NCBI GenBank assembly: GCA_944389235.1
Contig: CALXLO010000005.1
Coordinates: 1-59,080, forward strand
DNA length: 59,080 bases
Source: an uncultured Alphaproteobacteria bacterium
Lineage (GTDB): Bacteria; Pseudomonadota; Alphaproteobacteria; Rs-D84
Direction: 5' to 3'
Each line of letters opens with the position of its first letter. Position 1 is the first letter of the stretch. Positions 408 through 35,291 of the stretch are shown here, one piece after another. Made by a program: the position numbers and the translations under genes. The notes beneath the pieces were generated by a model. It did no database searches. It worked only from the letters and a program-made list of their open reading frames with translations, and was not told the DNA's origin.

Positions 408-436
408 TTTACTTTTATAAAATCTAATGGTATGAT
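408..436 (+). promoter_or_regulatory. Putative sigma70 promoter of C4-like module 2
   Basis: TTTACT-17 nt-TATGAT with upstream TG, ending ~7 nt before the first leader hairpin. Confidence 0.5.
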
Positions 437-444
437 TTTGATTG

Positions 445-525
445 GCAAGGGCGTATTGCTCTTGCTGGGGCTTTTCAACCCTGCGTATAGCGTCAGAGTA
501 TGACGATACAATACTCCAACTTTTT
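445..525 (+). promoter_or_regulatory. Structured leader with a1/b1 target sites of C4-like RNA
   Basis: Hairpin 445-465; hairpin 467-482 with loop TTTTCAA (a1, 472-478); CGTATAG (b1, 484-490); alternative strand ACTCCAAC 513-520. Confidence 0.7.
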
Positions 526-595
526 GGTTGGAGTGCGGTGAATATATCGAATAAACCGCGCAATTCTATACGATTGTTGAAAAACTCCAACCACC
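526..595 (+). ncRNA. C4-like antisense RNA (three-way junction)
   Basis: P1 526-534/584-592, P2 535-539/555-559, P3 560-564/573-577 with loop CTATACG (b'), bulge TTGAAAA (a'); ends CCACC; covaries with the copy at 26828-26900. Confidence 0.75.
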
Positions 596-620
596 TGCAT
601 TTTTCTGGTGGTTTTTGTTT
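589..620 (+). terminator. Intrinsic terminator overlapping the 3' strand of the C4-like RNA
   Basis: AACCACC...GGTGGTT followed by T-run; same element at 1-30 and in the 26.8 kb copy. Confidence 0.65.
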
Positions 621-640
621 ATATTTTTATGGGGGTTAAC

Positions 641-26428: not shown

Positions 26429-26505
26429 GGATGTTTAGCTCAGTTGATTAGAGCGTCTCGTTTACACCGAGAAGGTCGGGGGTTTGAGTCCCTCAACATC
26501 CACCA
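26429..26505 (+). tRNA. tRNA-Val(TAC)
   Basis: GGATGTT/AACATCC acceptor, TCTCG-TTTACAC-CGAGA arm, CCA end. Confidence 0.93.
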
Positions 26506-26781: not shown

Positions 26782-26827
26782 GTTAACCCCCATAAAATAT
26801 AAACAAAAACCACCAGATAAAAACACA

Positions 26828-26900
26828 GGTGGTTGGAGGCTTCTAACAATTAGCAAGAATTGCGACTTTTATTCAATATATTCAAAGTCCCTCCAACCAC
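26828..26900 (-). ncRNA. C4-like antisense RNA
   Basis: P1 GTGGTTGGAGG/CCTCCAACCAC, P2 GACTTT/AAAGTC, P3 GCAATT/AATTGT; b' CTTGCTA and a' TTAGAAG complementary to upstream b1 (26936-26942) and a1 (26948-26954). Confidence 0.75.
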
Positions 26901-26986
26901 GAATTGGGTTGGAGTTTTTATCGTCCCTGCGGACGCTTGCTATTGGATTAGAAGTATCCAGCGACAGAACACCCGTCGCAAAAATT

Positions 26987-27037
26987 ATTATAGTCAGCAT
27001 AATTTAATATTGCAATCTGAAAATTGTTTGGTATAAT
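26987..27037. promoter_or_regulatory. Divergent promoters sharing a palindromic TTGCAA -35
   Basis: TATAAT on - (26987-26992) and on + (27032-27037), 17 and 16 nt from TTGCAA at 27010-27015. Confidence 0.55.
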
Positions 27038-27299: not shown

Positions 27300-27376
27300 G
27301 GGTGGTTAGCTCAGTTGGTTAGAGCGTTACGTTGACATCGTAAAGGTCGTTGGTTCGAGTCCAATACCACCCACCA
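27300..27376 (+). tRNA. tRNA-Val(GAC)
   Basis: GGGTGGT/ACCACCC acceptor, TTACG-TTGACAT-CGTAA, TTCGAGT, CCA. Confidence 0.96.
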
Positions 27377-32075: not shown

Positions 32076-33725
32076 ATGACAAGTTATGATGTAATCATTA
32101 TCGGTGGTGGACATGCCGGGGTCGAAGCCGCCACCGCATCTGCCCGACGGGGTGCAAAAACATTGCTGATAACCCAAAACGAATATGATTTGGGCGCAAT
32201 GTCGTGCAACCCCAGTATCGGTGGACCAGGCAAATCCCAAATGGTCGCAGAAATTGACGCAATGGGCGGCATAATGGGACGCGCCGCCGATGCTGCGGGT
32301 ATTCAATTTCGTATGCTGAACGCATCACATGGCGCAGCAACCCAGGCATTGCGTGCACAAATTGACCGCGTGTTATATCATAATGAAATTGTAAAAATAC
32401 TGAAAAACTATCCTAATTTAACTGTGCAAATTGAAACTGTAAAATCGCTGGACATCGCGAAAATGTGTATCAACAGCGAATATACTGCACGGGCAATCGT
32501 ACTGACAACTGGCACATTTTTACATGGTCTGGTTACACGCGGAAATGAAAAAATATCATCTGGGCGTATTACTGATGACGGTCAATACCAAGCAGCAGAT
32601 ACAAATATATCAAACATTTTATCTGATTCTGGGTTTCGTATAATGCGTCTGAAAACAGGGACCCCCGCACGCATAGAACGCGCGTCTGTTGATTTTTCTG
32701 TATGTGAAATCCAGCCGGCCGACAACCCACACGATTGGTTTTCAGAACCAAATCCTGATAATAATTTCAGTGCAGTATGCTATATAACACACACCACCCA
32801 AAAAACACACGATATAATTCGCGAAAATATCGCATCCGCCCCAATGTATAACGGCGATATTCATGGCACAGGTCCGCGCTATTGTCCCAGTCTGGAAGAT
32901 AAAGTTATGCGATTTCCGGAACATAAATCGCACCATGTTTTCTTGGAACCCGAAGGACTGACCAGCAACCTGATTTACCCAAATGGAATTTCGACCAGTT
33001 TTGGTACAGATATCCAAGATAAATGGATTCGTACTATACCAGGACTGGAAAATGCGCACATTGTACGATATGGATATGCCATTGAATACGATGCGATTGA
33101 CGCACGCGCACTGCGTGATACACTGGCATCCAAAGATATTCCCGGTTTATTCTTTGCCGGTCAAATTAATGGCACATCAGGATATGAAGAAGCCGCCGCC
33201 CAAGGCATCGTCGCCGGCAGTAATGCTGCTGCATACGCATTGGGGTTGGCACCTTTATTGCTGGACCGAACAAACGCGATGATTGGTGTTATGATTGACG
33301 ATATAACCACAATCGGTGTTGATGAACCGTATCGCATGTTTACATCACGCGCAGAATATAGGTTAAATCTGCGGGCAGATAATGCAATTGTGCGATTGGG
33401 TGATATGGCAGTAAATCTGGGATTAATAGATTCAAAATCGCGCGATAAAAAATACACATATCGCGCTGATAAAATTGCCGAAAATGATAAAATTTATGCC
33501 GGATATATCCAGCGCAACGAACGCGAAATTGCGGCGTACCGGCGTGATGCAGAATTAAAAATTCCAGCACATTTTGAATACAAAAATTTACCGGGATTAA
33601 CCAACGAATTGGTTGAAAAATTAACCGCCACACGGCCAGAAAATATCGCAGACTTGTCGCGTATACCCGGCATGACCCCCGCCGGAATAATGGTTGTTAT
33701 GCGTAAAATAAAATGTGGTAATTAA
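32076..33725 (+). CDS. mnmG: tRNA U34 carboxymethylaminomethyl modification enzyme MnmG (compact)
   Basis: GGGHAGVEA, MSCNPSIGG, GPRYCPS, AGQINGTSGYEEA, YRMFTSRAEYR. Confidence 0.96.
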   Translation: MTSYDVIIIGGGHAGVEAATASARRGAKTLLITQNEYDLGAMSCNPSIGGPGKSQMVAEIDAMGGIMGRAADAAGIQFRMLNASHGAATQALRAQIDRVLYHNEIVKILKNYPNLTVQIETVKSLDIAKMCINSEYTARAIVLTTGTFLHGLVTRGNEKISSGRITDDGQYQAADTNISNILSDSGFRIMRLKTGTPARIERASVDFSVCEIQPADNPHDWFSEPNPDNNFSAVCYITHTTQKTHDIIRENIASAPMYNGDIHGTGPRYCPSLEDKVMRFPEHKSHHVFLEPEGLTSNLIYPNGISTSFGTDIQDKWIRTIPGLENAHIVRYGYAIEYDAIDARALRDTLASKDIPGLFFAGQINGTSGYEEAAAQGIVAGSNAAAYALGLAPLLLDRTNAMIGVMIDDITTIGVDEPYRMFTSRAEYRLNLRADNAIVRLGDMAVNLGLIDSKSRDKKYTYRADKIAENDKIYAGYIQRNEREIAAYRRDAELKIPAHFEYKNLPGLTNELVEKLTATRPENIADLSRIPGMTPAGIMVVMRKIKCGN

Positions 33726-33766
33726 AAATATTAAAAAAAGCCGGCTTTTGCCGGTCTTTTTTAATA

Positions 33767-34351
33767 TTAAAATCTGTATCCCAGACCGGTTGTCAAACCG
33801 AATCCAGATATGTCCATATCTGCGTCATATCCATATACATCGACACTGAATGATGCACCGGCATATTCCAGACCAACCTTGACATACATATTGTCATTAA
33901 ATGTGTACTTTACACCGGCACCAATGCCATAGCCAAAACCAATTTCATTATCAACATCTAATGAATCAATACTGATAAATCCGATACCAGCAGATAATGA
34001 AATATATGGTTGTAATTTAGTGTCCATAAACGGAATATCCAATTTTAATCCCAAATCAAAAATAGATGTGTCTTCTTGATCTGAATAAGATGGGGTAAAG
34101 GCCAGTTGAATCCCATCAAAATCAGCACCAACAGACAGCGATGTACCCGCATTGATTGATGTTGTATCAATGTCTGACAGTGTTTGACTGTCCAATTTTG
34201 TTTTTGTCCCGGCACTGGAAAATATCGATGCGCCATATTCCATAAAGAATCTGGTGTTATCAAATATATTGGTTGTGCTGGCTGGCGTTTCTGTGGCAAA
34301 GACACTTGCAGGCAATAATGCACATAGTGCAACAGGAATTATTTTTTTCAT
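33767..34351 (-). CDS. Small outer membrane beta-barrel protein
   Basis: Signal peptide, alternating beta strands, QPYI, C-terminal GLGYRF. Confidence 0.88.
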   Translation of the reverse strand: MKKIIPVALCALLPASVFATETPASTTNIFDNTRFFMEYGASIFSSAGTKTKLDSQTLSDIDTTSINAGTSLSVGADFDGIQLAFTPSYSDQEDTSIFDLGLKLDIPFMDTKLQPYISLSAGIGFISIDSLDVDNEIGFGYGIGAGVKYTFNDNMYVKVGLEYAGASFSVDVYGYDADMDISGFGLTTGLGYRF

Positions 34352-34366
34352 ATTTTTTCCTTTTAT

Positions 34367-34590
34367 AAAAAAAGTTAAACCGCCACAGTATTGGCGGTCG
34401 GGGAGTTGATAAATCATATCTGTTAGATGATTCCGCTGTCTTTGGTAAAACCTGTTGTATACCAGCTGCCCCCGACCCAATGTCGGGGATATAACGGTGC
34501 AAAAACACCATTACACCAGATAACGATGCTTTCGCACCGAACAGATATGGACTTATCACAGTCCGAACGCCACATTAATGTGGGTTCTGG
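34367..34590 (-). ncRNA. C4-like RNA module (a1/b1 leader, C4-like RNA ~34393-34477, terminator) in the OMP leader
   Basis: a1 TGATAA/a' TTATCA; b1 CATATCTGTT/b' AACAGATATG; P1 GGTCGGGGG/TCCCCGACC overlapping terminator ACCGCCA/TGGCGGT; promoter TTGTAT-17-CATAAT upstream. Confidence 0.65.
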
Positions 34591-34744
34591 GTTCATTATG
34601 CGGGAAAAAATCCACAAATACAAGTAGTTGTATATCTATATATTACATCTATACGCATATATAAGTTATATATCAACAAGATTGAAATCACATCAATTTA
34701 TTACTGGAAATCTGGGAAAACATATATTAATATAAAACGGCATT

Positions 34745-34820
34745 GCCGGTTTAGCTCAGCTGGTAGAGCATCTCATTCGTAATGAGGGGGTCGTAGGTTC
34801 AAGTCCTATAACCGGCACCA
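34745..34820 (+). tRNA. tRNA-Thr(CGT)
   Basis: GCCGGTT/AACCGGC acceptor, TTCGTAA loop, CCA. Confidence 0.96.
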
Positions 34821-34871
34821 AAAAAATGTAATAAAAAAAGCCGGCTTTTGCCGGTCTTTTTTTGATGTTTT

Positions 34872-35213
34872 TTACTTTGATTTTTGACCCATTTCGACCA
34901 TAATTTGTTCCAATATGTCCTGTAATTTTTTTGAATTTGGGTTTACAGAAAACAAAAATTCGCGTGCATCATTCGACAATTGGTCTATTTCTGAAAGCAT
35001 TATTTTTAATACATGATATGGATGCAGACTGGATTTATATTTTTTCATCGGAACACCGTATTTAGCAAATGTATATTGACATACATCTGTAAATTTTTTA
35101 TCCGATGGTACATAATAAACTGCGCGTTTACCCGTCCTATCTATCACAGCAGATACTTCCTTGCTTAAACGCGCCAATAATTCAGAATCCAGTTTTCTGG
35201 TCGCGTTTTTCAT
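34872..35213 (-). CDS. Hypothetical protein
   Basis: ~113-aa ORF ending at a bidirectional terminator; start uncertain. Confidence 0.6.
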   Translation of the reverse strand: MKNATRKLDSELLARLSKEVSAVIDRTGKRAVYYVPSDKKFTDVCQYTFAKYGVPMKKYKSSLHPYHVLKIMLSEIDQLSNDAREFLFSVNPNSKKLQDILEQIMVEMGQKSK

Positions 35214-35291
35214 GTCGTTTGTTTTTATACAACGCATATACAAAAGTATTTGTTGATTTTTGGCAAAATACCGTGTATAAATATCCCCGTA

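Follow-up and report, generated by a model that had tools for sequence, protein, structure and literature searches.

Leader RNA ahead of an outer-membrane protein gene

The DNA analysed here, referred to as the window, was a stretch of 59,080 nucleotides (nt) from an uncultured Alphaproteobacteria bacterium (contig CALXLO010000005.1, positions 1 to 59,080). On its minus strand, positions 34367-34623 probably comprise a promoter and a leader RNA of about 230 nt deciding whether transcription reaches a downstream outer-membrane protein (OMP) gene, by a default-off terminator/antiterminator with the design of the C4 RNA of phage P1 and the CI RNA of P4. The predicted leader RNA, with a putative transcription stop signal of its own, precedes a gene whose 194-amino-acid (aa) product belongs to Pfam OMP_b-brl (34.4 bits, E 3.1e-8), and sequence comparison places it in a large, unannotated family of small-genome gut Alphaproteobacteria.

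The elements of the locus are collected in Table 1. From 34623 to 34351 on the minus strand they followed one another in the order promoter, hairpin H1, hairpin H2 with box a, box b, hairpin H3, seg1, seg2, arm P2, hairpin P3 with box b', box a', seg3, terminator, ribosome-binding site (RBS) and ATG; a preliminary description of the locus had given most of these motifs (all but H3 and P2) in this order, and each was found by script where it had been placed. Transcription was predicted to start about 6-7 nt 3' of CATAAT, at H1. Boxes a and b lay about 165 nt upstream of the b'/a' core, seg1 and seg2 were separated by a loop of 5 nt, and the final 4 nt of seg3 (GACC, 34396-34399) doubled as the base of the terminator stem. 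The minimum free energy (MFE) of the 256-nt leader was -94.6 kcal/mol, compared with -60.6 +/- 4.7 kcal/mol for 200 shuffled sequences (z -7.2), none of which folded as well.

Table 1. Features of the leader locus and related elements of the window, by position and strand.
Feature	Position	Strand	Basis
Promoter-like TTGTAT (34618-34623), spacer of 17 nt, CATAAT (34595-34600)	34595-34623	-	Located by script
H1, 5'-terminal hairpin, core CCCACAT/ATGTGG	34565-34594	-	MFE fold and motif location
H2, hairpin GGAC/GTCC, loop = box a TGATAA (34553-34558)	34549-34564	-	
Box b, CATATCTGTT, complement of b'	34540-34549	-	
H3, long hairpin of 20 base pairs, many G.U pairs, includes GAAA	34495-34539	-	MFE fold
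seg1, CCCCGAC, partner of seg2 in hairpin H4 (anti-antiterminator)	34482-34488	-	
seg2, GGTCGGGGG, 5' strand of closing stem P1, common to H4 and P1	34469-34477	-	
P2 arm, conserved A/U-rich internal loop (TATACAAC ... AAAG in the present copy)	34434-34468	-	
P3, hairpin GAATCA/TGATTT, loop = box b' AACAGATATG (34415-34424)	34411-34433	-	
Box a', TTATCA, between P3 and 3' strand of P1	34407-34412	-	
seg3, CTCCCCGACC, 3' strand of P1	34396-34405	-	
Intrinsic terminator, stem-loop (34378-34399) and T-run (34367-34377)	34367-34399	-	Terminator scan
RBS (34358-34363) and gene for the 194-aa outer-membrane beta-barrel protein (ATG 34351, stop ends 33767)	33767-34363	-	
Bidirectional terminator, copy 1 of a 39-nt direct repeat	33724-33762		
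Bidirectional terminator, copy 2, 92% identical over 39 nt, 16-nt core identical	34824-34862		
Second leader copy, type II, closing stem GGTTGGAG/CTCCAACC	433-639	+	Family model R1, 36.8 bits, E 6e-8
Third leader copy, type II	~26810-26990	-	Three-strand scan and sequence reading

Covariation and pairing

The family was described by a covariance model (R1) built from 21 aligned copies (250 positions, 56 pairs), and 85 distinct copies of sequence type I, the best-scoring ones, were aligned to it for the covariation, duplex and energy tests. Standard pairs were formed in 96.7% of cells, and 33 of the 56 pairs were changed on both sides; none of 500 shuffles reached any of the observed covariation measures, and controls with slid partners were 33-48% paired. 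The alignment was fitted to R1, but a/a', H4 and the outer four pairs of P1 lay outside the model, and a/a' and H4 were nevertheless paired in 98.4% and 98.1% of cells (n=85). The core pairs of a/a' were doubly changed in 50, 52 and 45 of the 85 copies, with 0-3 unpaired cells.

Double changes were also seen in 7 of the 8 pairs of H1 (97.9% of cells paired), 3 of the 5 pairs of H2, all 8 pairs of P2 (family helices 8-9) and 4 of the 8 pairs of the terminator stem (96.6% of cells paired); 79 of 85 copies had a U-tract, taken as 5 or more T in 9, after this stem. H3 (family helices 4-6) was paired in 88.8-97.8% of cells and P3 (helix 10) in 98.6%, and the internal-loop columns of P2 showed low entropy (0.47 bits). 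In stem P1, 95.8% of cells were paired, and double changes affected four of the ten pairs (256-358, 261-353, 262-352 and 263-351); for the three inner ones, 261-353, 262-352 and 263-351, this occurred in 5, 12 and 5 of the 85 copies, respectively. At column 261, which is shared by both partners of seg2, the seg1-seg2-seg3 triplets were C-G-C in 71 copies, G-U-A in 2, U-A-U in 2 and G-C-G in 1, and triple covariation of seg1, seg2 and seg3 was found in 5 of 85 copies. The two sequence types of the family, I and II, differed in all three switch strands jointly.

Pairing between the distant boxes was also found with alignment-free duplex energies. The duplex a..b : b'..a' averaged -15.1 kcal/mol for cognate and -4.2 kcal/mol for non-cognate partners, and the cognate partner was the best in its row for 75 of 85 copies; the corresponding values were -4.4 vs. 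0.0 kcal/mol (72 of 85) for a:a' alone and -7.1 vs. -1.1 kcal/mol (63 of 85) for b:b' alone. At the present locus the duplex of a/b with b'/a' reached -19.6 kcal/mol (-24.2 kcal/mol for the a1b1 control of phage P1). In one group of six orthologous leaders the variable columns were concentrated in a, b, b', a' and the apical loops, and the flanks were identical. Taken together, covariation supports all helices, the long-range pairings a/a' and b/b', and both rival partners of seg2.

The minus strand had been preferred in the preliminary description on account of G.U pairs, and the larger set bears this out: such pairs were abundant and one-sided (U.G at 107-202 in 73 of 85 copies, G.U at 320-345 in 68), and the RNA would therefore be read from the minus strand. 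A GAAA tetraloop invoked for the same purpose is less likely, GAAA being better taken as a strand of the long H3 helix that is paired with a U-run; the family pairs 90-214, 91-213, 102-209 and 103-208 join GAAAG to this run. The strands of H3 are themselves internal repeats (CGGTGC...GCATCG and CGGTG...GCACCG), and can form one long helix or two hairpins. The two-hairpin form, which would contain the tetraloop, was rejected in favour of the single long helix, as its “loops”, where altered across copies, stayed complementary; it may be a folding intermediate.

The promoter had been described as TTGTAT-17-CATAAT. The motif was present and was missed by a consensus promoter scan because its -35 hexamer agrees with the consensus at only 3 of 6 positions; the -10 was conserved in the family. 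The best -10-like hexamer ended 6-7 nt ahead of H1 in 78 of 85 copies, and agreed with TATAAT at 5-6 of 6 positions in 46 of 85. Given this fixed distance, promoter and leader move as one unit, and the candidate promoter is supported by family conservation, not by the consensus scan.

Proposed switch

The core of the leader would be a three-way junction (P1/P2/P3) with b' in the loop of P3 and a' just ahead of the 3' strand of P1. In the proposed mechanism, seg2 would pair with either seg1 (hairpin H4) or seg3 (stem P1). Formation of H4 would leave seg3 free and the terminator complete, and transcription would stop 16 nt short of the ATG (off); formation of P1 would deprive the terminator of its base, and the polymerase would continue (on). 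The duplex between a-b and b'-a' would occupy the 3' strand of P3, and in a nested energy model would favour H4 plus terminator by about 8 kcal/mol, so that the RNA would lock itself off by default, in a manner comparable to CI and seqA of P4. What tips the switch on could be an RNA acting in trans, a protein, or a ligand bound by the conserved P2 loop. We infer the direction of the switch, its default-off state and the existence of a tipping factor; the anatomy, the covariation, the distribution of the family and the types of downstream gene were observed.

Energies over the 85 copies were consistent with a default-off state. In the nested model the fold with H4 and terminator was more stable than a forced P1 fold in 84 of 85 copies (mean difference 11.2 kcal/mol), and unconstrained MFE folds contained H4 in 77 copies, the terminator in 71 and P1 in none. 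When boxes a..b were masked, the gap between the two folds shrank to 3.4 kcal/mol.

Several points weigh against this reading. Stem P1 was absent from all 85 unconstrained MFE folds, and what speaks for it is the covariation of few pairs (the 5, 12 and 5 copies given above). The energy model cannot score a pseudoknot that combines P1 with a/a' and b/b', and the direction of the “lock” could therefore be wrong: as a' is only 2 nt from seg3, the boxes might, by stacking, favour the P1 (on) fold instead. The 85 copies, being top scorers from related genomes, are not independent events. No trigger was identified when a second NusG, GGDEF proteins and RelA/SpoT were sought in the organism's own genome (97.9% complete): one NusG only was found, with no second one of the RfaH/LoaP type, and no GGDEF or RelA/SpoT protein, so that the organism apparently makes neither c-di-GMP nor (p)ppGpp. 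Finally, cover from RNA runs consisted of assembled contigs alone, which cannot show RNA ends. A metatranscriptome contig (run X17) spanned 34399-34621, that is the leader without its terminator, and another (X18) spanned 34113-34461, bridging the terminator; as such contigs show neither ends nor strand nor level, may derive from DNA, and give no evidence on the stretches they leave uncovered, no conclusion was drawn from them.

The variability of the boxes raises the question of a true C4/CI mode, in which a core released from the leader after termination or processing would recognise, in trans, only nascent transcripts of its own locus, by the private a/b code that each locus has, and so set termination, giving locus-by-locus autoregulation or bistability. 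The layout is that of C4, which is excised from its own leader and acts in trans according to the annotation of the phage P1 record, and CI is reported to do likewise (PMC4825925). The core of box a was nearly maximally variable (1.79 bits vs. 0.3-0.45 bits for the switch strands), 71 distinct box codes occurred in the 85 copies, those codes of the organism's own genome that were read all differed, and orthologous leaders altered their boxes between identical flanks. Against this, boxes within one molecule should pair in cis (the -19.6 kcal/mol duplex of the present locus), unconstrained helices also drift to unique sequences, the apical loops and the 5' flank were about as variable (1.51 bits), no a2/b2 site was found, and the assembled contigs, in which RNA ends would not show, gave no sign of a processing site or a processed RNA. 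We regard this self-addressed feedback as rather unlikely, and as distinctly unlikely its further consequence that each of the at least 20 leaders of the genome is a private RNA feedback loop flipping its own terminator, with a heritable on/off state for each surface, glycosylation or methylase gene.

The conserved P2 loop could also belong to a riboswitch-like sensor, with a small molecule, an ion or an RNA-binding protein at the junction or P2 loop stabilising P1 and turning the gene on; the boxes would then have a purely structural role, as pseudoknots shaping the pocket in advance. Classical riboswitches are built on such an overlap of closing stem and terminator, the junction and the internal loop of P2 were conserved (0.47 bits), the on and off folds were nearly balanced with the boxes set aside (3.4 kcal/mol), and a distant family member (L123, see below) seems, by eye, to exchange the terminator for a stem hiding the Shine-Dalgarno sequence, a switch of platform also known from riboswitches. 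Opposed to this are the Rfam searches, in which no known riboswitch scored, and the controlled genes, which had no metabolic theme and in 49 of 83 cases no Pfam family; moreover, with no GGDEF, no RelA/SpoT and one NusG in the genome, c-di-GMP, ppGpp and a partner of the RfaH/LoaP type are disfavoured. Such a sensor was judged unlikely, and the self-locking terminator/antiterminator described first was retained as the preferred model.

Comparison with known regulatory RNAs

At the gathering threshold, Rfam matched only tRNAs in the window. No C4-type match was obtained for 33600-35000 and 300-800 (E<=10), for 20 other copies (E<=1) or for 8 distant copies (E<=0.1), and no curated riboswitch model matched in the window, in 33600-35000 or in the 20 other copies. 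An Rfam search had been proposed in the preliminary description, and its outcome agrees with the absence of a known riboswitch there; the only model that scored was sRNA-Xcc1 (RF02221), always below threshold. With filters off, the best match of R1 to immI of phage P1 was 5.5 bits, on an A/T run. The C4-type models thus scored on none of the 30 copies tested, which also counts against the proposed C4/CI design: homology to C4 is not shown, and since R1 likewise found no match in immI, the likeness may be convergence.

The C4 RNA of phages P1 and P7 (RF01695, c4-a1b1 motif) shares with the leader a promoter, a box a, a box b and a hairpin spacer followed by a three-way-junction RNA, and the order annotated in the phage P1 record was a1, b1, C4, a2, b2, icd. 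When folded, the C4 of phage P1 gave a three-way junction whose third helix carried b' in its loop, and a' was left unpaired ahead of the closing stem's 3' strand, so that, judging from folds and family covariation, the leader core and C4 have the same topology. In P1/P7 C4 and in the leader alike, the upstream a/b boxes are complementary to a'/b', and where the boxes differ from one relative to another, their partners have changed to match. The differences concern output and context. The leader lacks the downstream a2/b2 of C4: over the RBS of the downstream gene, energies were -8.76 kcal/mol for cognate and -8.36 kcal/mol for non-cognate pairs, with the cognate best in its row in 1 of 84 (phage P1 control -24.4 kcal/mol), and the translational block of the next gene by C4 therefore does not carry over. 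Two parts of the leader are missing from C4, namely seg1, the strand competing with P1, and the intrinsic terminator joined to stem P1. The leader is chromosomal and occurs 20 or more times per genome, ahead of genes for outer-membrane proteins, glycosylation and methylases, while C4 lies before icd/ant; and C4 is a free RNA of about 77 nt, processed by RNase P and acting in trans in a context of prophage immunity, in contrast to the OMP gene context of the leader. The C4-like logic proposed earlier is hence retained for the element order, the core topology and the upstream boxes, which are as in immI of phage P1, but not for the output, which is an intrinsic terminator without a2/b2.

The CI RNA of the satellite phage P4 is reported to pair with an upstream seqA and a downstream seqC, causing premature termination, and to be excised from its own leader to act in trans (PMC4825925). 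CI may resemble the leader in that an internal box pairs with an upstream box of the same transcript; for CI the described result is early termination that keeps downstream genes off (PMC4825925), and in the leader the energy model favours the terminator when the boxes pair. CI additionally has the downstream seqC and a processed, trans-acting form, whereas the leader is known here from its boxes and conserved terminator; and CI controls phage replication genes, the leader cellular accessory genes. Compared by description, CI would be a nearer functional analogue than C4.

sRNA-Xcc1 scored exclusively on the P1-P2-P3 core, with 31.1 bits for the present copy, 31.4-46.2 bits in 5 of the 20 other copies and 32.6 bits in 1 of the 8 distant members; the best of the 29 copies tested (46.2 bits) was below the gathering score of 53. 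Like the leader, it has a three-way junction and a P2 loop of the AUACAA type, and its closing stem is similar. Nothing in its model corresponds to H1, H2, box a, box b, H3 and seg1, which make up the leader's 5' half, and it is described as a stand-alone, trans-acting small RNA of about 87 nt, the leader being located in cis. sRNA-Xcc1 was found upstream of symE in integron cassettes of Xanthomonas, and is, like the leader, upstream of and co-oriented with a gene (bioRxiv 10.1101/2025.06.18.660453).

The scheme of mutually exclusive helices has a wider parallel. Attenuators of the trp type and ON riboswitches, such as the adenine riboswitch pbuE, use exclusive helices 1:2, 2:3 and 3:4, with 3:4 as the intrinsic terminator, and the leader shares this scheme. 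Unlike them it has no conserved leader peptide and no known ligand class, and it adds a long-range box pairing. As a candidate leader peptide, the best ATG column was rejected, because no more than 44 of 85 copies had a frame of 8 or more codons starting there and because it fell in a structural motif. The literature searched on sRNA-Xcc1, on Enterousia, on C4/c4-a1b1 RNA and on P4 CI RNA contained no description of the leader family, which by its architecture is assigned to the C4/CI kind and is uncatalogued in Rfam.

Family size and distribution

The present copy matched R1 over its full length, including promoter, boxes, the three switch strands and the terminator, with 205.3 bits (E 2.3e-56), a score that is given by construction as the copy is a seed member; the 64 non-seed copies among the 85 scored 90-243 bits. 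When the leader was used in BLAST, all 36 congeners drawn were matched; beyond the genus, matches were confined to about 30 nt at its end. Within the genus, R1 at E<=1e-4 matched 98 of 101 genomes (75 of 76 high-quality ones), with at least 949 matches in total; in the order it matched 130 of 141 genomes and 17 of 22 genera, with at least about 1100 matches in a search that overlaps the former. In other families of the class, represented by one genome each, 16 of 149 matched R1 at 30-77 bits, and these distant copies retained the architecture. One distant member (L123:1501-1722, plus strand) had no terminator; by eye its seg3 can pair with the Shine-Dalgarno region, which suggests a translational form of the same switch.

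The organism's own genome of 823 kb gave 16 R1 matches at E<=0.01, of which 14 were judged credible. A crude scan for three matching strands followed by a terminator returned 23 candidates vs. 5 in the reversed-genome control and contributed 6 clear type II copies, though it missed several copies known from R1, the present one included. The genome thus contains at least 20 copies, about one per 40 kb, three of them in the window. By sequence these fell into two types, which shared a single architecture: type I, to which the present leader belongs, with the closing stem GGUCGGGG/CCCCGACC, and type II, with GGUUGGAG/CUCCAACC and variants. MAFFT aligned the 5' halves of 9 type II copies poorly.

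Both other copies of the window (433-639 and about 26810-26990) had their entire architecture in common with the leader and hence belong to the same superfamily; a shared order of elements had been noted in the preliminary description. Its companion claim, that there is no primary similarity to the other C4-like element, was contradicted by the R1 match at 433-639; Rfam at E<=10 over 300-800 gave no match for this copy. It precedes an open reading frame (ORF) of 54-58 aa starting MAKSKTKAELFDELL, and the small ORF after the 26810-26990 copy, which sits between the tRNA-Val genes 26429-26505 and 27300-27376, is nearly identical to it. Another leader, with the start of the same small ORF, was seen at the end of contig C9.

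Genes downstream of the leaders

A first ORF was within reach in 83 of the 85 copies, and these were classed with Pfam at E<=0.001, a survey of following genes having been suggested at the outset. Ten were DNA methylases or nucleases (EcoRI_methylase 4, N6_N4_Mtase 2, C-5 methylase, Eco57I, Mrr_cat and GIY-YIG 1 each), eight were glycan enzymes (GT8 2, GT2 2, GT6 1, RgpF 2, Sulfatase 1) and six were outer-membrane proteins (OMP_b-brl 4, Autotransporter 1, YadA_anchor 1). The remainder comprised ankyrin proteins (2), regulators (2), others (3), ORFs with matches below the cut-off only (3) and 49 without a Pfam family, many of which begin like signal peptides or lipoproteins when judged by eye. 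The types were thus accessory ones, and no common metabolic or transport theme was found among the 83. The leader is a general leader of many accessory genes, not of the OMP gene alone. An earlier suggestion that phage-type logic had been co-opted to gate a surface protein therefore stands in so far as the leader lies outside any prophage and before an OMP_b-brl gene, but is too narrow as to the genes controlled. The same suggestion would make the surface protein a possible phage receptor, exclusion factor or bistable antigen.

The C4/CI design is known to us only from phage and satellite immunity, and would here appear to be a standard leader of accessory and surface genes in an order of gut bacteria with reduced genomes. 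The stretches concerned are currently unannotated because Rfam has no family for them. Outer-membrane, adhesin-like, lipoprotein, glycosyltransferase and methylase genes are phase-variable classes in other host-adapted bacteria, and the family could therefore be a route to variation of the surface and the methylome. If the private feedback loops considered above were real, phase variation would be brought about by RNA, with no change in the DNA, in bacteria with almost no transcription factors. The 71 mutually non-pairing codes among 85 copies on a constant scaffold may also be of interest for orthogonal RNA switches.

Locus context

The block containing the leader and the divergent tRNA-Thr(CGT) gene (34745-34820, plus strand) had been described as bracketed by identical terminators. 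Both terminators were real and their 16-nt cores (33740-33755 and 34840-34855) identical, these being the only two sites in the genome at <=1 mismatch; over the full repeat identity was not complete (Table 1). At least half of the sampled words of the stretch were present in 16 of 24 listed runs, mostly labelled chicken gut metagenome. Candidatus Enterousia is an uncultured genus from farm-animal guts with genomes below 1 Mbp (PMC12306168).

In a contig of run X15, which is probably DNA, 33793-34675, that is most of the OMP gene and the entire leader, was swapped for 729 other letters between matching flanks (33500-33793 and 34675-34790), so that the leader-OMP cassette would be replaced in another strain. 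This single replacement, the direct repeat unique to the two flanking sites and the tRNA genes adjoining several copies would fit an element acting at the DNA level, whether the inverted boxes were recombination or inversion sites or the leader and terminators served as homology arms for cassette swapping. Such a function was considered very improbable for the element: its helices are rich in G.U pairs, which are A-C mismatches on the opposite strand, the boxes differ per locus, unlike the sites of one recombinase, the promoter lies outside the boxes, and no strand-changing joint was reported, in cover that was thin.

Two minor observations concern the surroundings of the leaders. As at the present locus, a tRNA gene preceded the leader by no more than about 100 nt in 3 of the 20 further loci scanned, and tRNA-adjoining loci are possibly insertion sites of islands or cassettes. 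Contigs of runs X17 and X15 skipped 324 nt at 34868-35193, most of a 123-aa ORF (34872-35243, minus strand), which points to an insertion/deletion difference between strains.

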